Shown piece by piece: positions 1 to 19,718 of a stretch of DNA of 20,000 bases (position 1 is its first letter; each line of letters starts with the position of its first letter). A program made the position numbers and the translations under genes. The notes beneath the pieces were generated by a model. The model had not been told where the DNA came from, searched no databases, and saw nothing but the letters and a program-made list of their open reading frames with translations. The DNA lies in sequence record SRR31156797_5854. One strand, written 5' to 3'.

Positions 1-354
1 TACATTAAATTCGTCTGAAGCTTCCGAAAGCAGATATTCTTTGCCGATATCAGAAAGCAAAGCTAAATCTGATAGCAAAAAAATTCCTGACATAATTATT
101 AACACTACAAATACAGATGAAACGAAAGATACATTCATTGTCTTCAAACTCTGTGATAGTAAAAATAGGTGATATAATCCTATTATAAATAATGCAACTA
201 TAGTAAGTCCACCTAAAGTCTCTAAATACTTTGGCACTTCTGTTAACTGTGGTATAAGTTTTATTTTCAATAATATAAATACAATTAAACAGTAGATGAG
301 CAATAGAATTGACGTAATACCAAATATTTTCTTCCCAATATTATTCCTTTTCAT
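1..354 (-). CDS. Multi-pass membrane protein, 3' end runs off the window (not in ORF track)
   Basis: Manual translation from ATG at 354 (RBS GAGGT upstream): MKRNNIGKKIFGITSILLLIYCLIVFILLKIK...LGGLTIVALFIIGLYHLFLL...VFVVLIIMSGIFLLSDLALL. Open to base 1 with three hydrophobic stretches; overlaps the XRE gene end by 14 bp. Confidence 0.85.
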   Translation of the reverse strand, partial: MKRNNIGKKIFGITSILLLIYCLIVFILLKIKLIPQLTEVPKYLETLGGLTIVALFIIGLYHLFLLSQSLKTMNVSFVSSVFVVLIIMSGIFLLSDLALLSDIGKEYLLSEASDEFNV

Positions 355-574
355 TTAAATCTACCTCACTTTCATGTTCTAAATAGAATACTTCCTCAAC
401 AGTCGTGTGAAAAACTTCGGCCATTTTCAGGGCTAGCACAGTGGATGGCACATATTTACCTTTTTCTGTGGAATAGATAGTCATCCTAGATACTCCAACT
501 ATATCAGCAAGAGACTGCTGCGTCATTTCGCCATTTAAAAACCTTAGCTTTCTGATATTATTTTTTAATTTCAC
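341..574 (-). CDS. XRE/Cro-like helix-turn-helix transcriptional regulator
   Basis: NNIRKLR...MTQQSLADIVGVSRMTIYSTEKGKYVPSTVLALKMAEVF is a classic HTH_3 pattern; GTG start with RBS GAAAGGGG. Confidence 0.95.
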   Translation of the reverse strand: MKLKNNIRKLRFLNGEMTQQSLADIVGVSRMTIYSTEKGKYVPSTVLALKMAEVFHTTVEEVFYLEHESEVDLNEKE

Positions 575-612
575 TTATCGTACCCCTTTCCTATGAAGAT
601 TATACTTGTATT

Positions 613-675
613 ATAAAGCATACTTAGCATTATGTAAAGTATTCTTTACTTCAATTGATGTAAAATATATGTACA
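613..675. promoter_or_regulatory. Probable operator site(s) of the XRE regulator
   Basis: Inverted repeat GTAAAG-TATT-CTTTAC at 634-649, with degenerate copies at 613-628 (ATAAAG-CATA-CTTAGC) and about 660-675, just upstream of the XRE gene. Confidence 0.55.
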
Positions 676-691
676 ATCACTATACCTGTAC

Positions 692-746
692 AAAACAAAA
701 AGTCCGCTACTGTACAATGACGCTTTCACTGATACAGAACCGACTT
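692..746 (-). terminator. Long imperfect hairpin plus U-tract ending the LCP transcript
   Basis: Minus strand reads AAGUCGGUUCUGUAUCAGUGA-AAGCG-UCAUUGUACAGUAGCGGACUU-UUUGUUUU, about 50 nt after the LCP stop. Confidence 0.65.
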
Positions 747-797
747 AATAATAAAACTTTGATTTTTTGTTTTTTAAAATTCTTGTTAAGTTAAGTA

Positions 798-2012
798 TTA
801 TTCACTAATTTTATTATAGAATAAATCTATCACTAATTCACGAGTAGCTTTTGCATCCACAATATAGACTGCTTCCTCATCTTCACCCTCGGGTACTACA
901 GTCTCTCCTTGAATTGAAATTATCTCCTTAGAAGAAAAATCGTCAGATAAAACTGTTTGAACCAGAAATGAAAACTCATTATTTTCGATATTGTAAACAG
1001 AATAATCATTGATTAACTTCAACAATTCAAAAGGAAGCGTAACATTAGTCTTGGTTTGTTCCTTTACAGTATCTAAAAATGCATGAACAAACTGTATCTG
1101 CCTTGGGCGTCTACTCTCCAAATCACTGTTATCTTCTTTAGTATTTCGAACCTTAACATAAACACACGCTTCAGGACCATTTAAAGTAACTACATTCCCT
1201 TTTTTCATTTTATGTAAATTCATGCTATATTCCTGCTGCTTGGTCATTATACTGTTATATCGTGCATATGGATAAAAATCTTCTAAAACTTCCAGAGTAA
1301 TGCCCCCTACAGCATCAGTAAGCTCAATAATTGCATTTAGATTAATAGCAAAATATCTGTTAATCGGAATACTGTATAGAAGTGAACTTACTGCTTCGGT
1401 CGTAAGGTTCGCACTTATCTCCTTACCATCACCATAGGCATAGGACGTGCATATCTGCCCCTCAACGGTATTAATAACACGGGTATAGTTGGAATCCATA
1501 ATATCAATTTCTGTCAGACAATCCCTTGGTATGCTTATAATATTAGCTTCTTCTGTCTGTGTATTTATTGAAACCAGTACTAATAAATCCGCATGACCTC
1601 CAGTAATATAGCCATTCTTAATATGTCTGCCTTCCGTTGTTTCATCTACACCTATAAACAAAAGATTAATAAGATCTGGATTGTACTGATAAAACTCACC
1701 ATCATACTGCACAGCATTGTCAGGCAATTCCAGACCTGTGTCTACTACGTCTTCTTCTGGATTTTCTGAGGATTCAGTAGCAGCAACATCAATTACACTG
1801 GTATCCTCAATAACAAACATTTTTTCTTCATTATATTTTCCAGTAGATTTTACATAATAGACTGCATAAATAATTCCTGCTGTTATAATAAGAAGAAGTA
1901 CAATTATGAATATTTTTATAATTTCAGCTAATAGCTTCTTGGGATGTGTATTAGTATTTTCTTTCACAATGTCTAATGATTTACCATCATTTTGAATAGT
2001 ATCTTTACTCAC
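798..2012 (-). CDS. LytR-CpsA-Psr (LCP) family glycopolymer transferase
   Basis: Single N-terminal TM helix; motifs NLLFIGVD, ADLLVLVSIN, ISIPRD, SYAYG, DAVGGI, TLNGPEA..YVKVR, RRPRQ. Confidence 0.93.
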   Translation of the reverse strand: MSKDTIQNDGKSLDIVKENTNTHPKKLLAEIIKIFIIVLLLIITAGIIYAVYYVKSTGKYNEEKMFVIEDTSVIDVAATESSENPEEDVVDTGLELPDNAVQYDGEFYQYNPDLINLLFIGVDETTEGRHIKNGYITGGHADLLVLVSINTQTEEANIISIPRDCLTEIDIMDSNYTRVINTVEGQICTSYAYGDGKEISANLTTEAVSSLLYSIPINRYFAINLNAIIELTDAVGGITLEVLEDFYPYARYNSIMTKQQEYSMNLHKMKKGNVVTLNGPEACVYVKVRNTKEDNSDLESRRPRQIQFVHAFLDTVKEQTKTNVTLPFELLKLINDYSVYNIENNEFSFLVQTVLSDDFSSKEIISIQGETVVPEGEDEEAVYIVDAKATRELVIDLFYNKISE

Positions 2013-2029
2013 AATTTTATCCTTTAGTA

Positions 2030-2791
2030 TTAATATATCACTTCATCAATAAGTACGCCTACAACTAAATATCGTTTAGTACTTCGGTTTTTAACACAAG
2101 TTGATAATGTTATTATTTTATCATCTACCGTTACATCTACATCGTCTATATAATTATCTATAACTCCAGTATACTTTGAAAAGGTCTCTATATATGAAGT
2201 GTAGAATTCGTCATCATTATAATCAACACCCCATAGTATCCTTTTATCATCACGCTGATACGATGCAAAGATTTTATATGTACATTTCTTTTCTGGAGTA
2301 TAAATATATATCATTCTGTAATTATTTATAAATTCTTCATCTTCAAATTTGTGTAAATCAGCAAACATAGTACCATTATCATTATTGTGTCCATATATTA
2401 CTGTATTCCTATCTATTAAATCAGAAGAAGTATCGCAATCGAAAAAAATAGCTCCTCGCTCATCTGGATCCTGTCTGATAGAATTCTCAAGATAATACTG
2501 ATTGTCATATGTTTGGGCAATAGGATAATCAATAACAGTACCAGGTATCTCTATCCATCCTACAATATCCATATTTTCTTTATGCAATTCATCAAAATCT
2601 ACAATCTTTTCACCTGGAATCTCAATCTCTGGTGTAGGATTAGGTGTTACTGCTGAAATAGTAGTCATAGCTTGACTCTCTATTATATCATTTTCAGCTT
2701 TATTGACTTCAGCGCACGAGACAATACTTAACAATACTAATATTATTATAGCTATTGGCAAAATTCTGTTCTTGTAAGTTATTTTATTCAT
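2030..2791 (-). CDS. srtB: Class B sortase
   Basis: NMDIVGWIEIPGTVIDYPIAQ, DNQYYL, GAIFFD, NTVIYGHN (catalytic His), TLSTC (catalytic Cys) and downstream Arg (KRYLVVG). Confidence 0.95.
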   Translation of the reverse strand: MNKITYKNRILPIAIIILVLLSIVSCAEVNKAENDIIESQAMTTISAVTPNPTPEIEIPGEKIVDFDELHKENMDIVGWIEIPGTVIDYPIAQTYDNQYYLENSIRQDPDERGAIFFDCDTSSDLIDRNTVIYGHNNDNGTMFADLHKFEDEEFINNYRMIYIYTPEKKCTYKIFASYQRDDKRILWGVDYNDDEFYTSYIETFSKYTGVIDNYIDDVDVTVDDKIITLSTCVKNRSTKRYLVVGVLIDEVIY

Positions 2792-2817
2792 TTACAATCC
2801 TCATTGTCTCTTTTCAC

Positions 2818-2852
2818 GAAAAGAAAGGTTAATTGATCTATCAAGTAACCTT
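2818..2852 (-). terminator. Terminator/attenuator-like hairpin between the surface-protein gene and srtB
   Basis: Minus strand AAGGUUACUUGA-UAGA-UCAAUUAACCUU (one mismatch) followed by UCUUUU. Confidence 0.55.
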
Positions 2853-2900
2853 ATTTTAAATATAATTATTGTATGTTTACATAGTATACGAAATCAATAA

Positions 2901-3473
2901 CTAGAATTCTGCCATTCTCTTTTTATTAGCAAACAATGCTATTGAGGCTAATACTACACAAGCTATTATTAATCCAATAATAGTATAGGTATTTGTGCTG
3001 CCTGTGCTTGGTGATTCAGCCCCAGGTTCAGAATCAACAATAATAGAAATTAATGCAGGGAATTCAGCTGTAAACTTAACCATTCCATCTACGATTTCAC
3101 TTTCTAATACTATCCACTCGCCATCTTTATAACATAGAACTGTTACTACAGAATCTTCTGTTAAATTTTCAACCTGTAAAGAAACTGTTGCTTCTCCTTC
3201 AACGTCACTTCCGTCTGCATCAGCCAACTTAATTTCGCTCATGAGTATTGGAACACCTGCTACTTCATTTGCCTCAATATAAGCATCCATCTCTTCGTTT
3301 AGCTTTGCTTTTTCATTTTCATCTGTTAGATCAGAAACTGCAACATTTTCTACTTCAGCAGGTGCACCTTCAAAACGTATTGTACCTACTACCGGACTTG
3401 GAGCTGCTAATGCTGCTAACCACAATGAACATGTAGCAGCAATGACTAACACCATCGCAATAACTTTCTTCAT
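2901..3473 (-). CDS. Small acidic cell-wall-anchored protein with SPxTG sorting signal (probable SrtB substrate)
   Basis: Sec signal peptide (MKKVIAMVLVIAATCSLWLAALA); C-terminal SPSTG, then a hydrophobic helix and KKR tail; RBS AAGGTGG. Confidence 0.88.
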   Translation of the reverse strand: MKKVIAMVLVIAATCSLWLAALAAPSPVVGTIRFEGAPAEVENVAVSDLTDENEKAKLNEEMDAYIEANEVAGVPILMSEIKLADADGSDVEGEATVSLQVENLTEDSVVTVLCYKDGEWIVLESEIVDGMVKFTAEFPALISIIVDSEPGAESPSTGSTNTYTIIGLIIACVVLASIALFANKKRMAEF

Positions 3474-3559
3474 AATATTACCACCTTATAAATTTTTATC
3501 ATATTATTATAATATGTTACATACTTGCATAATCCATCCATTGCCTGTCTATGTGTGTA

Positions 3560-3588
3560 ATAATACCATTATTTACCTATGTTATCAA
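3560..3588 (-). promoter_or_regulatory. Putative sigmaA promoter for the SPxTG protein-srtB-LCP unit
   Basis: Minus strand TTGATA (3588-3583), 17 nt spacer, extended -10 TG-G-TATTAT (3568-3560). Confidence 0.5.
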
Positions 3589-3677
3589 CAACTTTTAAAA
3601 CACTTATTTCGACATATTATCACAAATTATTGTAATTGCTTGCACAAATAATAGTATTATTTTAATAAGTGACAAAT

Positions 3678-4856
3678 TTATTCAATAATTCTTGCATATA
3701 TTTTCGGGATTGCTCCTTCAGTTTCATTTACTTTCTCAATATTGATATTCTCAATATCTACGTACCCCATCAATTCTCCATACACTTGGAATCTCTCACC
3801 ATTTTTGATTGCTTTCTCTCCATAATATTCAATTAATGCTATATCGTCACTATCGTTATTTACATAAAATGTAAATATTTGAGTTGGATAACGCTGTATT
3901 ATTTCCTGTACTCTGCCAGATATCTGAAATATTGTATAACCAGCACTAGTATCATCTTGGCTTGTTAATGCTGTATAGTCAGACGATATCGCCGATGTTT
4001 TGTATATATCAATATTAAATTGCCTTTCAACGTCAATTGTTTGTGTATATGTACCAAATTCTGGCGAAAAAGCTACTATATCAAAAGAGTATTTGCCTGG
4101 AATAACCGGAATATTTGATAACCAAATATTAAAAGTTTCTGAATCTTCCTTATGCTCTATTTCATATTCTAAATCAGTACTAAGCTCAAGTTCAGTTCCC
4201 TTAGATACTGTTCCTGATATTAAGAGCTGATTTGTTTCAGTGCTAAATATCTGCTCTGGATTGAATGCCAGCTGAATACTGGTATATTTTCTGAATATAA
4301 TCAACTGCTTTTTAATACTATCACCATTTTGGGCAATTGCTCTTATTGTCACATGGTTTTCTCCATAATCCTCCACGGGAATTACAATTTCACAATTACC
4401 TTCTTCATCAATAGCTGTATCTGCTTTAAGTCCATCTACTTCAATAATTGAAGCATTTGTATTTGCATTAACAATCGCTTCATTACCTTCAATTACTATT
4501 ATATCCTCCAAATCATCTGAAAATGACAATGTCAATTCATAATTACCAATACTTTGCCCAATTACTGTACTGTTATTATTTGACTTAATATTTAGAAGCA
4601 TTGAAAGAAGATAAGCTAAAACAGCAAACAGCAAAATAGTAGCAATCCATACAACAGCAGTCAATTTTTTTATTCTTGTAGTACGCTGTACTTGTTTTTC
4701 AAGCATATGCCCCTTTTTTAAAATAACAATTGGTATCTGTCCATCATCACTATCATTATAATTCTGGACATCGTCTTGTTTTATAAGTTCATTGCCGCAT
4801 TTATAGCAATGAGTATGATAGTAATTATTAATTGTTTTACATTGAGTACATCTCAT
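3678..4856 (-). CDS. Zinc-ribbon single-pass membrane protein with beta-rich extracellular domains
   Basis: N-terminal CxxC-x10-CxxC, TM helix near aa 65-90, Ig-like segment (GENHVTIRAIAQNGD), C-terminal OB-fold-like pattern (FQISGRVQEI...FQVYGELMG...IPKIYARIIE). ATGA overlap with the upstream phosphatase gene. Confidence 0.8.
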   Translation of the reverse strand: MRCTQCKTINNYYHTHCYKCGNELIKQDDVQNYNDSDDGQIPIVILKKGHMLEKQVQRTTRIKKLTAVVWIATILLFAVLAYLLSMLLNIKSNNNSTVIGQSIGNYELTLSFSDDLEDIIVIEGNEAIVNANTNASIIEVDGLKADTAIDEEGNCEIVIPVEDYGENHVTIRAIAQNGDSIKKQLIIFRKYTSIQLAFNPEQIFSTETNQLLISGTVSKGTELELSTDLEYEIEHKEDSETFNIWLSNIPVIPGKYSFDIVAFSPEFGTYTQTIDVERQFNIDIYKTSAISSDYTALTSQDDTSAGYTIFQISGRVQEIIQRYPTQIFTFYVNNDSDDIALIEYYGEKAIKNGERFQVYGELMGYVDIENINIEKVNETEGAIPKIYARIIE

Positions 4857-5599
4857 TTAATAATCTCCTGATTATGTATTTGGTCGTTTTTCAGAATATT
4901 TAGTGCATTATTATTTACTAATTCAGTATAATATTCTTCATTTACTATTCTTCTTAGAATATATAACGCTTCACCTATATGCTCTGTATCCTGTATATCA
5001 TGAGCATCACTTCCAACAATATGAATAAGTCCACGCTTTAGCAGTTTTTTTACAAACCTCGCTGGAATTCTGCCATATTTACCTAATAAACTCAGTAAAT
5101 TCATCTGTATAATAACACCGTCATCAACCCAGGATTCTATAACATCAAATCTGTTCATTAATACATCTATTCGTTCTACATGAGCTAATATTGATTTTAA
5201 TCCCCATACTGATAAATTGTATATTACCTCATCTATCAAGAGAATATCCTGTCCAAATACAGGCTCTATAAGTACATATTCTGTATCTTCAATAACCAAA
5301 TTTCCTATAATATCTTGTGTTGTTATGCTGTCTCTAGTCTGTACTTCATACCCAAGTTTCAAATTAATAGGTATCTTTTCTTCTTTTATTCTTTCTTTTA
5401 ATAAATTAAACTGTTTATTAATTGTATGAAATTTCACACTGTAATCATTAGCTGTATACATATGAGGTGTTGCAATTATTGTATTTATACCAGCATCAGC
5501 GAGATTTTTTGCCATATGAACAGATACTTCAATATCTTCTGCCCCATCATCAACTTCGGGGATAATATGACAGTGAATATCGATTACATTCATTCTCAT
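4853..5599 (-). CDS. cpsB: CpsB/CapC/YwqE-type PHP-family protein tyrosine phosphatase
   Basis: IDIHCHIIPEVDDGA, IATPH, LAHVER, GSDAH metal-binding motifs. Confidence 0.95.
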   Translation of the reverse strand: MRMNVIDIHCHIIPEVDDGAEDIEVSVHMAKNLADAGINTIIATPHMYTANDYSVKFHTINKQFNLLKERIKEEKIPINLKLGYEVQTRDSITTQDIIGNLVIEDTEYVLIEPVFGQDILLIDEVIYNLSVWGLKSILAHVERIDVLMNRFDVIESWVDDGVIIQMNLLSLLGKYGRIPARFVKKLLKRGLIHIVGSDAHDIQDTEHIGEALYILRRIVNEEYYTELVNNNALNILKNDQIHNQEIIK

Positions 5600-6444
5600 A
5601 ATTTAAATCTTCTCTTTTTAGTGTCGGCAGTTTTGCTTTTGTTTCTTGAGTAAACAAATTTTCTATCTTGTGTGCTGTTTTTTTTACTATTTAGATTATT
5701 ATCAACATCTTCAACGTCTTCAGCATAATCACTCACATCATTATTTGAGTAGCCATAATTATTACCATAGCCATACCCATATCCATATCTGTATTTACCC
5801 CCTCTGGAAGTTTCCTTATATTGTGTCAGAATTGAACCGATTATATTTCCATCAACGACATCCAGCGCTTTCTTTGATTCCAAGAGAGTTTTTTCATGGG
5901 TAAACATATGCTTTGCCACGATTATAATTCCGTCTGATATTTTAGATAAGGACAATGCGTCCGGCACAACCAGCACAGGCGGTGTATCAATGATTATATA
6001 GTCAAAGTCTTCTTTCATTCTTTCAAACATAGAATATATTTTGGCAGAACTAAGCAAAGTCACAGGGTTTGGCGGCTTTAATCCACTAGTCATAATATAT
6101 AAATCATTAATCTCTGTTTCAATAACCACATCTGCATAGTCATCCAAAAAAACGGCGTTACTGAAACCATTATTATTTACAATGTTGAAATGTTTATGGA
6201 CTCTAGGCTGTCTAAAGTCACTATCTACTAATAGAACTTTCTCACCAGACATAGCAAGAGAGATTGCTGTATTTACCGATATAGTTGTTTTTCCCTCGCC
6301 CATAATTGAGCTGGTAATCATAATAGTTTTTATATTCTTATCTATTGTTGAGTACTTAATATTAAGTGCAATCTTATTAAATATATCGCGCAATACAGAT
6401 GATTCAATCAAATTCGATTGCGGTATAGTTGATAACTTCTTCAT
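5596..6444 (-). CDS. cpsD: CpsD/CapB-type bacterial tyrosine kinase
   Basis: Walker A GEGKTT, A' LLVDSDFRQP, Walker B IIIDTPP, and Tyr cluster YRYGYGYGYGNNYGY. Confidence 0.95.
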   Translation of the reverse strand: MKKLSTIPQSNLIESSVLRDIFNKIALNIKYSTIDKNIKTIMITSSIMGEGKTTISVNTAISLAMSGEKVLLVDSDFRQPRVHKHFNIVNNNGFSNAVFLDDYADVVIETEINDLYIMTSGLKPPNPVTLLSSAKIYSMFERMKEDFDYIIIDTPPVLVVPDALSLSKISDGIIIVAKHMFTHEKTLLESKKALDVVDGNIIGSILTQYKETSRGGKYRYGYGYGYGNNYGYSNNDVSDYAEDVEDVDNNLNSKKNSTQDRKFVYSRNKSKTADTKKRRFKL

Positions 6445-6446
6445 AG

Positions 6447-7163
6447 TTATGCCTTCCCTTTTCTATTAGTCTTGCTGACATCTAAATAAGGCACTATACC
6501 AAATGTCGTTGTCCCCAATATTTTATCCATTTGTTCTGAAGATGCAATAGTTGAATCAAATAAGTCAATTATTATAGCAAAAGCTGCAGCAATAAAAACA
6601 CCAGCAAAAATACCAATTAAAGTATTACGTTGTCTGTTTGGTCTTATAGGTATTACAGGTAATCTAGCATAGTCAATTACCTGAACATTATCCATTTTCA
6701 TGATTTCAGTCACTTCTTCCTGAAAAACGTCCACCAATGCATTTGCTATAATCTTTGCAGTATCGGGATTAGTATTTTGTACGGATATTTTTATAATCTC
6801 AGTATTATCCTCCGCCTCTACATCAATACTTTTTGCAAGATCTTTTACAGAAATATCCAAGCTTGTTTGTTCAATAACCTGAGACAGAACTCTCTCAGTC
6901 TTTGCAATGATTCTATACGAATTGACTAGCTTAAGTCCCAGATTATAATCATTGTAGCTGATATTAGTTAAATCGCTTTCATTCTTCTGTGAACTAATAA
7001 TAACAGTCGCTTCTGCTTGGTATATGTCCGGCAGAATTATCCATGAATAAGCCGCTGCTAATCCGCCAAACACAATAGCTGCTGCTGCAATCCACCATAA
7101 TCGCTTCATAATACTACGAAACAAGTCAACTAAGTTAATTTCTATATATTTCTCTTCGTTCAT
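6447..7163 (-). CDS. cpsC: Wzz/CpsC/CapA polysaccharide co-polymerase, kinase activator
   Basis: EINLVDLF start, two TM helices, PDIYQAEAT, VQVIDYARLPVIPIRPN, C-terminal LG...FGIVP. Confidence 0.93.
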   Translation of the reverse strand: MNEEKYIEINLVDLFRSIMKRLWWIAAAAIVFGGLAAAYSWIILPDIYQAEATVIISSQKNESDLTNISYNDYNLGLKLVNSYRIIAKTERVLSQVIEQTSLDISVKDLAKSIDVEAEDNTEIIKISVQNTNPDTAKIIANALVDVFQEEVTEIMKMDNVQVIDYARLPVIPIRPNRQRNTLIGIFAGVFIAAAFAIIIDLFDSTIASSEQMDKILGTTTFGIVPYLDVSKTNRKGKA

Positions 7164-7192
7164 TTAATACAAATCTCCACCTTAATATCATT

Positions 7193-8605
7193 CTAGTACG
7201 CTCCTTTTCCTAATAAAAGCACTACTACGGTTTTCCCTATTGTTCTTATGTCTTCCCATATAGACCATTTCTCAATATATTCTTTTTCCATTTTTACAAC
7301 TGCTTCGAAATCCAATATATCGCTTCTTCCATTTGCCTGCCACATACCAGTAATACCTGGAATCATTGACAATCTGACAAAATGTCTTTTTTCATATTCT
7401 TTTACTTCGCTTACTGTAGGTGGTCTTGTACCTACCAAACTCATATCTCCTTTTAATACATTTATAAACTGTGGGAATTCATCAATACTTGTCTTTCTCA
7501 GGAATTTTCCGATTTTTGTTATTCTTGGGTCATTGTCAATCTTAAACAATTGCCCCTTCATCTTATTATGTTTCTTAAGATCAGCCTTTTTGGCTTCAGC
7601 ATCATTACACATGGTCCTGAACTTATATATTTCAAATATTCTTCCGTTCTTGCCTACCCTGTCTTGTTTGAACAGAACCGGACCCTTGCTTCCAATTTTT
7701 ATTATCGGAGCAAATATTATAAACATTACTGCAAACAAAACAAATCCTATAGAACCCCCGAATAAATCCAAACATCTTTTAAGAAACAACTGACCATAAT
7801 TAAGGTGATGTATGGAGTACCTTATAGCCGGTATGTTCTCCTTAAAGGTGATTTTCCAATCTTCAAATCCCGGTATATATGGTTCAATAACCGCAGTTAC
7901 AGATACGCCTCTTTCCTTGCAAGTGCTTATAATTTCCCTATATTCGTCTTCGTATGTTCTCTTTTGGTCAATTACCACATGATCTATGGTTTCGCCTTTT
8001 ATTAATTCATTAAAAGAAGCTAATTTACCTTTATGCTTGACTTCGCAGGCTTCCATCATCTTGCATGGTTCATTGCTCAGATAGCCAATAATATCAGTAC
8101 CCATAAATTCATTTATTTTCACATATTTATGGTATCTTACTGTATCATCTGAGCTGCTAAGTATCAGTGTTTTTACAGCATTATTTTTGTATGAACCTTT
8201 ACGAATTAAGTACATAAGTATTCTATTGGTTACTGTAAATATAAAGTAAACAGTGGTAAAAACCACAAGTAACAGGAAACCCATTCCTGTGTTTTTGCTT
8301 AATAGTATTACCATTAATTCACTAATGCAAACGCTTAATCCTACCAGAGTAATTATAGTAAGAAACTTATTCAAAATGGTTTTATATTTGGATAAATCAT
8401 CTTGATAAACATTAAACAATGTGAACAAAACCGCAATCATAGCGGTTACAGATACTATAAAAGAAGCGCCTTTTAGCGAACTGGGAATCATTCGTAAAAA
8501 GTTCTCCCTCATTATTTTAGTACATATAATATAAGCAAACTGTATGCCTATTAAATCCAAAAAAAGATATTGAATCTTTAACAGTGTGGCTTTACTTTTC
8601 AACAT
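7193..8605 (-). CDS. cpsE: Priming polyprenyl-phosphate hexose-1-phosphate transferase (CpsE/WcaJ-like)
   Basis: Four N-terminal TM helices; KRCLD, FKQDRVGKNG, YKFRTM, DPRITKIGKFLRKTSIDEFPQFINVLKGDMSLVGTRP, PGITGMWQ. Confidence 0.93.
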   Translation of the reverse strand: MLKSKATLLKIQYLFLDLIGIQFAYIICTKIMRENFLRMIPSSLKGASFIVSVTAMIAVLFTLFNVYQDDLSKYKTILNKFLTIITLVGLSVCISELMVILLSKNTGMGFLLLVVFTTVYFIFTVTNRILMYLIRKGSYKNNAVKTLILSSSDDTVRYHKYVKINEFMGTDIIGYLSNEPCKMMEACEVKHKGKLASFNELIKGETIDHVVIDQKRTYEDEYREIISTCKERGVSVTAVIEPYIPGFEDWKITFKENIPAIRYSIHHLNYGQLFLKRCLDLFGGSIGFVLFAVMFIIFAPIIKIGSKGPVLFKQDRVGKNGRIFEIYKFRTMCNDAEAKKADLKKHNKMKGQLFKIDNDPRITKIGKFLRKTSIDEFPQFINVLKGDMSLVGTRPPTVSEVKEYEKRHFVRLSMIPGITGMWQANGRSDILDFEAVVKMEKEYIEKWSIWEDIRTIGKTVVVLLLGKGAY

Positions 8606-11909: not shown

Positions 11910-11960
11910 TAATTGTATGTAATTACATTTATCTATGTCGATAAAGTAAGGAGGTTAGCA

Positions 11961-12575
11961 ATGCGTAATGATAAAGGTTTCACACTACTTGAAATAGTTA
12001 TTATTTTATCGGTTATGGCAATAATAGCTTCGGTTGCTATACCTAATTATATGTTAACATGGAAAGACAAAAGCTTAGATGCTGATAAAATGGCATTATT
12101 CTCTTTGAATGACGCAACCAAATCCCTTGCTATGGTACAAGATGTAAGTTTAGAAAACATCTTTAATGGATATGAGTCAAATTCAGACAAAATGGATTAC
12201 TTGGTTCAGAATGGCTTTGTAATATCTGTTCCTACTCCAGAAACTATTGATGCATACTTTGCATGGGATACAGAAAATACTGAATGGGTTTTAGTGTGTA
12301 TTGACGGTTCAAAGAAAACAAGTGAAAACTTAGTTCTGAGATATAGTAGCGGTGAGAGCTCATCAGATAACGATAATCTTTATATTGACCCAGACTCAAT
12401 CGAGGATTACTGCTCGGATGAAACATATAATAGAGGTGATATAGTAAAATATAAGGGCAAAATATTCGTATGCTCACCAAAAAATGACAAAAAGGATACT
12501 ATATCAGATATCAGTCCAATAAAAAATAGTCAAATAAACAGTAATTACTGGGAAGAAATTGAATTGGATGATTAA
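11961..12575 (+). CDS. Type IV pilin-like protein with C-terminal CBM5/12-like module
   Basis: Start reassigned to ATG 11961 (RBS AAGGAGG). Class III signal MRNDKG|FTLLEIVIILSVMAIIASVAIPNY; C-terminus TYNRGDIVKYKGKIF...SP...YWEE. Confidence 0.88.
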   Translation: MRNDKGFTLLEIVIILSVMAIIASVAIPNYMLTWKDKSLDADKMALFSLNDATKSLAMVQDVSLENIFNGYESNSDKMDYLVQNGFVISVPTPETIDAYFAWDTENTEWVLVCIDGSKKTSENLVLRYSSGESSSDNDNLYIDPDSIEDYCSDETYNRGDIVKYKGKIFVCSPKNDKKDTISDISPIKNSQINSNYWEEIELDD

Positions 12576-12701
12576 TACTTGAATGCCCATTATGCAGACA
12601 TAATATTTAATTATTGTGATTGAATAAATTATTATTATTTCCTCGTTTCAGTATCATGTACAACGAATTTTGTAAAATTTTCTAGATTCATTCACGAGAC
12701 C

Positions 12702-12730
12702 TTGATATTGAATAGATATTATGTTACAAT
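12702..12730 (+). promoter_or_regulatory. sigmaA promoter of the T-box-pheST operon
   Basis: TTGATA (12702-12707), 17 nt spacer, TG-T-TACAAT (12722-12730). Confidence 0.75.
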
Positions 12731-12757
12731 GCAAAAAAGTTTTTAACTTAATTAGTA

Positions 12758-12974
12758 AATGCAATGATAAAGCAAAGTAAGATATGGTGGATATTATCTC
12801 TAAGAGAGAGCTGTTACTAGCTGAAAGCAGCTTAGATAATACTATATACGAATTTCACTTTGGAGGCAGGTCATCTGACACGTAGGTTGACACGGAGCAC
12901 ACCGTTATGTGCATACTACTTAATTAGGTGGTTAACGTGTGATATTTCCTCGTCCTTTTATGGGCGGGGTTTTT
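12758..12974 (+). ncRNA. Phe-specific T-box riboswitch leader
   Basis: GA motif, AGTA bulge, AGAGA and GCTGA stem I apex motifs, specifier TTC at 12854-12856, CCGTTA F-box, T-box AATTAGGTGGTTAACGTG (12922-12939), and terminator; directly upstream of pheS. Confidence 0.92.
12948..12974 (+). terminator. T-box attenuator terminator
   Basis: CCTCGTCC-TTTTAT-GGGCGGGG-TTTTT. Confidence 0.85.
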
Positions 12975-13012
12975 AAGTTTAACAAATAAATACTTCAAGA
13001 AAGAGTGATATT

Positions 13013-18446: not shown

Positions 18447-19718
18447 TTATTCTAAGTTTTTAATAACCCCTGTAAACAATGGTTTATTATTTTCATTATC
18501 AACTATAAAGAATACAAATGGTTTGTTCGCAATAAACTCAAATAATTCTGCATCCAGCGGAGCACCTCTTAGTGACATAATCACAACAGTTGCTGCACTT
18601 GCCTCAGTACCAGCTTCTCCTACACTTACTTTTGCCTGATGGATTACTTTGCTCAAAAACAATCCTTTTCCTATACCATCAAAATCCGTAGACGTAATAA
18701 AAGCTTCCTTCATTCCAAGAGATATAAGAATATCATTCATGTTCAAACTCTGCTCAATTGTAAACTTTGGAATTATAATATTTGCATTTTCCTGGACTTC
18801 AAAATCACTAAGGATTTCTATGTATTTATCTTCATCCATACTTGATATAAATTCGTCTATGTCATTATCAGGTAATACCAGGATCATAGACGTTTCCATG
18901 TTTTTGCCATAATTGAGTTTAATCGTCCTACAATCATCATGAATATAACCATATACACTATCACTGCTTGTCATCATTTCCACATCTTCTGTAGTTTGCT
19001 TAGTACCTGAAAAATCCATATCGATATTACAATCATGATCAAAAGGCATAGTCCAGTCACCTTTAAAATATATTGCATTAACCAATACTAGCCTATCCAA
19101 TGGATCGAATGGGTTCTTTAGAATATCCTGTATCATTTTGTTGGTCTTTTTACTTATCCATTTATTAATTGTATTTACTGCTTTATCGCTCTGAAGGTCT
19201 ATATCATTAGCCTCAGCATCAAAGCTTAGCTTAACTTTATCCAAATAGTCTTGATTTATTTCGGCTTCATCATCAATCCATACAGAATTGGCAACATTGA
19301 CTGTGCTGTCAGTCATTGAATTATATCGGTCGATTTCAGTCTCATAATCATTGCTGATTTGGCACAAATCTCCATCAGAATATCCTAAAACATTTAGCAT
19401 CTCCTCCAGTGTTTTGCCAGAAGCTCCCATCATAACCATAGATAGTGCAGAATTAATTGAATATTCGCTGTAAAAAATATTGCTGCTATTATCTGAATCA
19501 TTTATTGCTTTCAGCAAACTTAAGTTGAAATTGCCCGTTAAGTACTCTTCATTTACTGCTATGTCTTCCTCTGAACTATCAATCTCTTCTGTTTGACTGC
19601 TAGTCTCATTATCTTTTTCAGTATTTTCATTTATATCTGTATCATTAATATTCTGTTTACAAGAAGTAAATAATCCGATAAATATCATAATACATAAAGG
19701 AATTAGTAATTTTTTCAT
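18447..19718 (-). CDS. Lipoprotein serpin (serine protease inhibitor)
   Basis: Lipobox-like LFTSC; NIFYSEYSI, VANSVW, INKWISKKTNKMI, LVLVNAIYFKGDW, hinge EAGTEASAAT, FIANKPFVFFI; RBS AAAAGGAGA. Confidence 0.95.
   Translation of the reverse strand: MKKLLIPLCIMIFIGLFTSCKQNINDTDINENTEKDNETSSQTEEIDSSEEDIAVNEEYLTGNFNLSLLKAINDSDNSSNIFYSEYSINSALSMVMMGASGKTLEEMLNVLGYSDGDLCQISNDYETEIDRYNSMTDSTVNVANSVWIDDEAEINQDYLDKVKLSFDAEANDIDLQSDKAVNTINKWISKKTNKMIQDILKNPFDPLDRLVLVNAIYFKGDWTMPFDHDCNIDMDFSGTKQTTEDVEMMTSSDSVYGYIHDDCRTIKLNYGKNMETSMILVLPDNDIDEFISSMDEDKYIEILSDFEVQENANIIIPKFTIEQSLNMNDILISLGMKEAFITSTDFDGIGKGLFLSKVIHQAKVSVGEAGTEASAATVVIMSLRGAPLDAELFEFIANKPFVFFIVDNENNKPLFTGVIKNLE

Follow-up and report, generated by a model that had tools for sequence, protein, structure and literature searches.

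A Conserved Clostridial Trio of Small Sortase Substrate, Class B Sortase and LCP Transferase beside Capsule Genes, and Its Possible Role in Capsule Display

The stretch of DNA analyzed here, 20,000 nucleotides of sequence record SRR31156797_5854 (the window), carries eight genes on its minus strand between positions 8605 and 798, which encode in this order CpsE, CpsC, CpsD, CpsB, a zinc-ribbon membrane protein, a small secreted protein (Sub190), a class B sortase (SrtB) and an LCP glycopolymer phosphotransferase. The locus is best explained as a diverged version of a module for capsule display that is conserved in Clostridia. Its last three genes form a trio that is no chance neighborhood, and the Sub protein and the LCP are the tightest pair within that trio. 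Capsules of gut Clostridia shape colonization and inflammation, and one of them, that of Mediterraneibacter gnavus, requires a sortase for its display. The likely missing piece of this requirement is a family of small SPxTG proteins that are annotated as hypothetical and are almost always encoded next to members of one LCP subfamily, in many cases with a dedicated sortase nearby as well. An earlier note on this DNA had described the eight co-oriented genes, the SPSTG protein among them and the gap of only 17 bp between srtB and the LCP gene, and all of these were found where it had placed them.

Sub190 (2901..3473, minus strand) is a secreted protein of 190 amino acids with a predicted beta-sandwich, a sortase substrate and a candidate glycan carrier. 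It begins with a signal peptide and ends with a cell-wall sorting signal made up of SPSTG at residues 154-158, 23 hydrophobic residues that form the transmembrane segment, and a KKR tail; no other open reading frame (ORF) in the window carries such a signal. SrtB (2030..2791, minus strand; 253 amino acids with an N-terminal transmembrane segment) scored 168.4 bits against TIGR03064, a curated equivalog model with a cut-off of 153.75, and has the catalytic His, the TLxTC cysteine and the downstream Arg of its class in its YGHN, TLSTC and KRY motifs. The LCP (798..2012, minus strand; 404 amino acids, also with an N-terminal transmembrane segment) scored 81.2 bits against PF03816 and 72.6 bits against TIGR00350 (cut-off 62.3). 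It is a member of the subfamily that accompanies Sub and SrtB, and D123, D142, R163, R289 and R301 are invariant in a 20-sequence alignment of that subfamily. A Y-x-G-x-x-Y-x-Y-N motif ahead of the canonical LCP domain (approximately residues 101-112 of the window protein) varies hardly at all among the 20 LCPs associated with the trio (alignment A5) and falls outside the region aligned to solved LCP structures; it may be a subfamily signature or a partner-binding element. The LCP ORF of another locus (L043:8035-9543, plus strand; 502 amino acids) has a long hydrophobic N-terminal extension.

The evidence that the trio is a module comes from several starting points. A scan of species-representative genomes with SrtB returned seven distant loci (35-44% identity), five of which hold the trio in the same order, that is, a small [S/A]PxTG protein of 87-190 amino acids, the sortase and an LCP; the contig of one of the other two ends just past the sortase. 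About 400 Clostridia genomes were sampled three times, with SrtB, with the LCP and with a Sub profile. The SrtB search gave a match at E<=1e-25 in 62 of 399 scored genomes, and an LCP lies within 1.5 kb in 8 of its 30 best loci. The LCP search gave 16 matches at E<=1e-22 in 15 of 400 genomes. Nine of these 16 closest LCPs lie, by coordinates, at most 2 kb from an SrtB-search match, and family and profile searches revealed a divergent sortase and a Sub directly beside the LCP in two further genomes (G341 and G102), which brings the LCPs that adjoin a sortase to 11 of 16. By our own tally, a small sorting-signal protein adjoins 13 of the 16.

The strongest contrast was obtained with the Sub profile, built from 47 sequences, which matched 24 of 401 Clostridia genomes at E<=1e-8. 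The 30 best loci comprise 13 small ORFs (146-291 amino acids, small being defined as 300 or less) and 17 large ones (374-2022 amino acids) in which the same domain sits inside a bigger surface protein. Within 1.5 kb, the small ORFs are accompanied by an LCP in 12 cases, by SrtB in 8 and by cps regulators in 7, whereas the large ORFs are accompanied by an LCP in none and by SrtB in 3. The LCP contrast of 12/13 versus 0/17 corresponds to a Fisher p of 1.5e-7, with the reservation that the loci are not phylogenetically independent. Very large ORFs of 1050-2022 amino acids containing the Sub core are found at L148, L150, L153, L155, L157, L161, L163 and L165 (genomes G097, G025, G354, G226 and G234), none with an LCP within 1.5 kb.

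The arrangement of the three genes varies: Sub-SrtB-LCP, SrtB-LCP-Sub, LCP-Sub-SrtB, LCP-SrtB-Sub, and an SrtB-Sub pair that converges with an LCP gene on the opposite strand were all seen. Linkage that is kept through such rearrangement argues for a shared function. The SrtB and LCP ORFs overlap in 15 of the 18 loci that hold both, although these are longest-ORF calls and the overlaps may be overestimated. It could still be proposed that the LCP is merely the CpsA of the capsule cassette and that Sub and SrtB are an unrelated surface-protein pair that happens to lie next to it. In agreement with such a chance neighborhood, 22 of the 30 best SrtB matches have no LCP within 1.5 kb, and the first SrtB-scan loci have no cps genes within 10 kb. 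The contrast between small and large Sub ORFs, the linkage kept across several gene orders and the loss of the M. gnavus capsule when srtB4 is lost all speak against it, and we regard it as very improbable.

Homologues of CpsB, CpsC, CpsD or CpsE flank the module in loci from the Clostridia genomes (L038, L043, L050, L052, L054, L143, L147 and L156). A metagenome scan with a narrower Sub alignment (A4) gave 225 relatives, of which the best 80 loci were kept. SrtB and LCP stand beside Sub in 61 of the 62 loci with at least 2.5 kb of upstream sequence, and CpsB/C/D are present in each of the 49 loci whose flanks are long enough on either side. These 80 loci are from the human gut and are highly redundant, falling into 10 clusters at 90% identity, one of which holds 55 loci, so the count of 61/62 says little about diversity. 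The sole exception is L069, an M. gnavus-type locus that keeps Sub, CpsB and CpsD; where SrtB and LCP would be expected (positions 1-6903), it has a transposase, a TraG-like coupling protein and a MuF-like gene. Synteny with the M. gnavus-type locus L076 begins at 6904, with the transposase and conjugative-element genes exactly at the break; L069 may correspond to the srtB4-negative strains mentioned in PMC13121745. The earlier note had named a lack of conservation of the trio with cps genes as a refutation of its proposal, and this refutation was not borne out. The trio itself proved to recur across Clostridia in several gene orders. Its place beside cps genes is borne out in 7 of 13 small-Sub loci and in the 49 metagenome loci, and does not extend to the seven distant SrtB-scan loci, none of which has them within 10 kb.

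A published relative of the window is the srtB4 locus of M. gnavus, to which the major metagenome cluster (55 of 80 loci) was matched through L076. When the published srtB4 check primers were placed on L076, they hit its sortase ORF, with 0 and 1 mismatch, and the record for the Sub of this locus reads 'hypothetical protein [Mediterraneibacter gnavus]'. The window SrtB is 40% identical to this SrtB4 ORF (E 1e-47), with its YGHN, TLSTC and KRY motifs aligned to the same motifs there, and the two LCPs are 32% identical (E 2e-44). The two Sub proteins are 34% identical over 70 amino acids (BLASTP 2e-4). Both the M. gnavus cluster (RGna_12030-12060) and the window encode CpsC, a class B sortase, an LCP, a small SPxTG protein of the Sub family, CpsB and CpsD. 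They differ in order, which is CpsE-C-D-B-zinc ribbon-Sub-SrtB-LCP in the window and CpsC-SrtB4-LCP-VanZ-Sub-CpsB-CpsD in L076. A VanZ-like membrane protein (L076:6412-6951, plus strand; PF04892, 7.8e-22) lies between LCP and Sub in the M. gnavus locus alone, and the zinc-ribbon protein is found in the window alone. The M. gnavus genes lie at the edge of a capsule cluster. In the window, the eight genes have no gene for sugar synthesis or for a glycosyltransferase as a neighbor.

Obana et al. (2026, PMC13121745) reported that a clean and complemented deletion of srtB4 in M. gnavus ATCC 29149 abolishes capsule display and that disruption of the LCP gene next to srtB4 also abolishes the capsule. 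The capsule is likewise lost on disruption of a third gene, which is named as the phosphatase RGna_12055 in the main text and as RGna_12050::erm in a supplementary legend. Supplementary Fig. 4b of the same paper flags RGna_12050 [SPQTG] as a candidate target, and this SPQTG 'hypothetical protein' belongs to the Sub family. The sections of the paper considered here propose no carrier protein and no mechanism for the sortase requirement. This work has overtaken the earlier note's remark that sortases are not part of canonical cps loci. The type of locus is already known genetically from one paper (PMC13121745, in the parts considered), and the possible chemistry is known from an actinobacterial precedent.

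That precedent is Actinomyces oris, in which the gene directly downstream of gspA is lcpA and its product, LcpA, glycosylates the sortase-anchored protein GspA, as the earlier note had stated; the glycan is transferred to GspA before sortase anchoring (Siegel et al. 2019, PMC6381275, in the parts considered). A 2021 review called the LcpA-GspA system 'so far unique'. The A. oris system and the window are alike in having an LCP gene beside the gene of a sortase-anchored protein. In contrast, A. oris belongs to a different phylum from the clostridial module, its LcpA has an actinobacterial disulfide, and its housekeeping SrtA is encoded elsewhere, whereas in the window the operon includes its own class B sortase. 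The consulted parts of PMC6381275 mention no CpsBCDE cassette of the capsule type in A. oris.

Two other systems resemble parts of the locus. The streptococcal cpsA-B-C-D-E cassette and the window share five functions, namely the LCP (CpsA), phosphatase, Wzz-like activator, tyrosine kinase and initiating transferase. Compared to that cassette, the order in the window is permuted with the LCP last, and the sortase, the sorted protein and the zinc-ribbon protein are inserted. Streptococcal capsules are joined to peptidoglycan by a ligation for which no sortase is known to be needed. The SrtB of Clostridioides difficile is, like that of the window, a class B enzyme with the same (S/P)PxTG motif type; in vitro it cleaves SPSTG, SPQTG and SPKTG peptides between T and G (PMC4155245, in the parts considered). 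C. difficile has this one general sortase, whose substrates are adhesins and hydrolases, and the same parts of that paper describe no dedicated small LCP-coupled substrate. Among the openly accessible papers searched, only those on M. gnavus and A. oris bear on a sortase-LCP-capsule mechanism. Neither a family-wide rule of Sub-LCP(-SrtB) association nor a carrier candidate that forms a large family with no Pfam or NCBIfam model was found in the literature searches.

The reading that we favor, tentatively and at a little under even probability, is one in which Sub receives the polymer from the LCP and is then anchored, with its load, by the sortase. The earlier note had proposed such a protein-tethered capsule or glycoprotein coat, made of the Wzy-type polymer started by CpsE, and its interpretation is partly supported. 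CpsE would start a polyprenyl-linked polymer, the production of which would be regulated by CpsC, CpsD and CpsB. The LCP would take the polymer off its lipid carrier and pass it to Sub190, which at that stage would still be held in the membrane by its C-terminal anchor, and the dedicated class B sortase would cut the SPSTG motif between T and G and link Sub190 to peptidoglycan, so that the capsule would be tethered to the wall through a protein. The pairing of Sub with LCP, the A. oris precedent for enzyme and acceptor and the dependence of the M. gnavus capsule on a sortase make loading of Sub by the LCP the simplest reading. The roles of Sub as glycan acceptor and of the CpsE product as donor are both inferred. 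A broader proposal, that in many gut Clostridia a Wzy-type capsule is put by this LCP subfamily, through phosphotransfer, on a Sub carrier, probably at the Ser behind the signal peptide, and is anchored by SrtB and not ligated to peptidoglycan, is offered with reserve as somewhat short of an even prospect.

A capsule on an SrtB-anchored carrier would explain why M. gnavus requires srtB4. It would also mean that LCP enzymes have protein acceptors well beyond Actinomyces, and it would represent the first LCP protein-glycosylation system outside Actinobacteria together with a protein-tethered capsule. Anchoring of the capsule in these bacteria would then depend on a sortase, a known drug target, and capsule loci could be recognized by the Sub/SrtB/LCP trio.

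A word-based homologue search with Sub190 gave nothing at E<=1e-3 among 434 candidates, and the family of this putative carrier was reached by profile alone. Sub190 was itself among the seed-alignment sequences, which makes its fit to the Sub profile circular; the Sub of L038 was matched directly (tblastn E 6e-10). With a threshold of E<=1e-3, a profile from 10 locus-derived Subs retrieved 4248 cluster representatives, and with the stricter E<=1e-10 it retrieved 1643; the weaker matches may be inflated because this profile takes in the signal peptide and the anchor. The members are mostly 180-250 amino acids long and consist of a signal peptide, a variable N-terminal part, a conserved core, a variable linker and a sorting motif that is mostly SPKTG or SPQTG. 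Pfam and NCBIfam models matched nothing but the anchor motif in the 47 members scanned. A Ser/Thr-rich stalk was considered as the glycan acceptor and rejected, as the linker between the domain and the sorting motif is variable and nearly gone in L041 and L042. The Ser that directly follows the signal peptide is nearly invariant in alignment A3, and the pattern AxA-A-x-S is found in 105 of 137 small representatives; judged by this conservation pattern, it is the sole conserved candidate acceptor, and a weak one.

With the family alignment, the AlphaFold2 model of Sub190 is a beta-sandwich at residues 29-147 with a predicted local distance difference test score of 83 (57 without that alignment), flanked by helices at 2-22 and 162-189. 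Foldseek found no match to the model in the PDB at E<=1e-3, and the 47-Sub profile matched among PDB sequences merely signal-peptide-like stretches and SH3 fragments (E>0.08). A wide search with VIA-align gave a best Z of 7.3 (root-mean-square deviation 3.4, 90 residues aligned) with the C-terminal beta-sandwich domains of glycoside hydrolases. All fold matches of Sub are below Z 8, the level under which the tool warns of common arrangements, and neither program gave a convincing structural relative.

Among these matches of low score are autoproteolytic folds, that is, the FIIND of CARD8 (Z 6.8) and of NLRP1 (6.0), ZU5 (5.7-5.8) and GAIN (5.0-5.6). Pfam FIIND was matched below threshold in 4 of 47 Sub members, with a best score of 22.8 bits against a threshold of 25.8. 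Sub members (for example P0031, P0039, L041:11519-12091 and L044:10417-11040) also have a covarying motif at a tight turn before the last beta-strand, and 96 of 150 representatives fit a simple pattern there, which includes S-L-S-P in 65, S-F-S-P in 15 and H-[LFT]-C in 7. The motif, the weak FIIND, ZU5 and GAIN matches and the sub-threshold Pfam scores raise the question of self-cleavage at the turn in Sub members other than Sub190. The turn of Sub190 reads F-P-A-L-I-S, lacks the S-[LF]-S-P motif and has neither Ser nor Cys at the turn.

Several observations weigh against loading of the polymer onto Sub by the LCP. First, the nearest solved relatives of the window LCP (TagU, TagV and others) are peptidoglycan-directed ligases or uncharacterised LCPs, and LcpA of A. 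oris is absent from its nine PDB sequence matches. Second, the linker is unconserved and almost missing in two loci, and the conserved Ser could equally reflect the context of signal-peptidase cleavage. Third, the association is incomplete: two of the 16 LCP-subfamily matches (L051 and L055) have neither Sub nor sortase nearby, and 4 of the 13 small-Sub loci have no sortase within 1.5 kb. Fourth, a complete Wzy-dependent capsule locus has glycosyltransferases, Wzx and Wzy beside its regulators, and Pfam detected no glycosyltransferase, Wzx flippase or Wzy polymerase among the 17 ORFs of the window that were scanned. The pathway that would make the donor polymer is absent from the window; its genes may lie elsewhere in the genome. 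Finally, no cps genes were detected within 10 kb of the seven SrtB-scan loci (tblastn with the 17 window proteins, and Pfam on the 58 sortase-nearest of 110 listed ORFs). As the trio occurs in distant loci with no cps genes nearby, its tie to the polymer started by this CpsE is one that we infer.

The M. gnavus phenotypes, furthermore, fit equally well with an arrangement in which the LCP ligates the capsule to the MurNAc of peptidoglycan as usual and Sub is an SrtB-anchored helper, acting for example as a scaffold, as a retainer in the manner of a lectin, or by activating either the LCP or the export machinery. Assembly or retention of the capsule would then require that SrtB fix Sub to the wall. 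The ligase-like relatives of the LCP are in line with this alternative, as are the plain beta-sandwich-type domain of Sub, with its best matches among glycoside-hydrolase C-terminal domains, and the lack of a conserved Ser/Thr stalk; the pairing of Sub with LCP in 12 of 13 loci would suit a protein partner as well as a substrate. However, the sole LCP gene beside a sortase-substrate gene to have been dissected, that of A. oris, proved to be part of an enzyme and acceptor pair. In addition, there is no obvious reason for a helper to be attached covalently by its own sortase, the ORF of which overlaps that of the LCP in 15 of 18 loci, and the fold matches stay under the warning level of the tool. 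We consider a helper role of Sub a serious possibility, well short of even.

A third possibility is that the sortase itself makes the link. An amine of the polymer, either lipid-linked or nascent, would take the place of the peptidoglycan cross-bridge and be joined to the SPSTG Thr, and the LCP would afterwards ligate this conjugate to the wall. Amines of various kinds can serve sortases as nucleophiles, the sortase ORF is closely coupled to that of the LCP, and the M. gnavus capsule requires the sortase, all of which would suit such a reaction. No precedent for it was found in the literature searches, and the sorting signal is of the ordinary clostridial SrtB type. C. difficile SrtB substrates that carry such a signal are reported to be bound to peptidoglycan (PMC5569036 and PMC4591827, in the parts considered). 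A link of this kind is improbable in our estimation, and there is a small chance that none of these four readings is right.

Upstream of the trio lie the cps genes and the zinc-ribbon gene. CpsE (7193..8605, minus strand; 470 amino acids) is a polyprenyl-phosphate hexose-1-phosphate transferase of the initiating type, with 214 bits against PF02397 (1.4e-63) and 346.6 bits against TIGR03025 (cut-off 295.55). The CpsC/Wzz-type protein (6447..7163, minus strand; 238 amino acids), a membrane protein of the chain-length and kinase-activator type, scored 62.5 bits against PF02706; its score of 155.9 bits against TIGR01006 is under the 296-bit cut-off of that model. CpsD (5596..6444, minus strand; 282 amino acids) is a tyrosine autokinase that scored 157.3 bits against TIGR01007 (cut-off 108.05) and has a Tyr-rich YGYGYGYG tail, read directly from its translation. 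CpsB (4853..5599, minus strand; 248 amino acids) is a tyrosine phosphatase of the PHP type (PF19567, 190.6 bits, 3.6e-56).

The fifth gene (3678..4856, minus strand) encodes a protein of 392 amino acids with an N-terminal CxxC-x10-CxxC zinc ribbon and a single transmembrane segment, both read from the sequence, and an outside part of approximately 300 amino acids. It matched no Pfam or NCBIfam family at threshold. Its atlas neighbors are zinc-ribbon/Ig-like hypothetical proteins of Bacillota, some with Zn_Ribbon, Big_6 or PEGA domains. The protein, with its Ig-like outside part, is possibly a lineage-specific regulator of the cps cassette; it was rejected as a part of the module, as no relative was found in any locus fetched for comparison.

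The genes from cpsE to the zinc-ribbon gene are closely packed, with overlaps of 4 nucleotides between cpsD and cpsB and between cpsB and the zinc-ribbon gene. They are followed by an intergenic gap of 204 bp (3474..3677, minus strand), in which a consensus scan and reading of the sequence revealed two promoter-like sites and an AAGGTGG ribosome-binding site, and then by the genes of Sub190, SrtB and the LCP. This layout suggests two units, and the gap upstream of the Sub190 gene could possibly hold a promoter for the trio. A promoter has been mapped in the corresponding cluster of M. gnavus (PMC13121745, supplementary Fig. 6 legend).

Elsewhere in the window, a serpin of 423 amino acids (18447-19718, minus strand; PF00079, 1e-97), a protein type uncommon in bacteria, was found. 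A protein of 220 amino acids (11913-12575, plus strand) that carries the N-methylation motif of type IV pilins and weakly matches CBM_5_12 is encoded alone between murA and pheS. No Rfam family reached its gathering score anywhere in the window, including T-box or other matches in the 437-bp gap upstream of pheS-pheT (12576-13012). In one of the loci fetched for comparison (L031, G080:C4:106003-109548), a class B sortase gene lies directly upstream of pheS-pheT, and the PheS encoded there is 54% identical to that of the window, where the sortase gene and pheS are approximately 10 kb apart; the adjacency of the two genes in L031 may be a remnant of shared synteny with the window.

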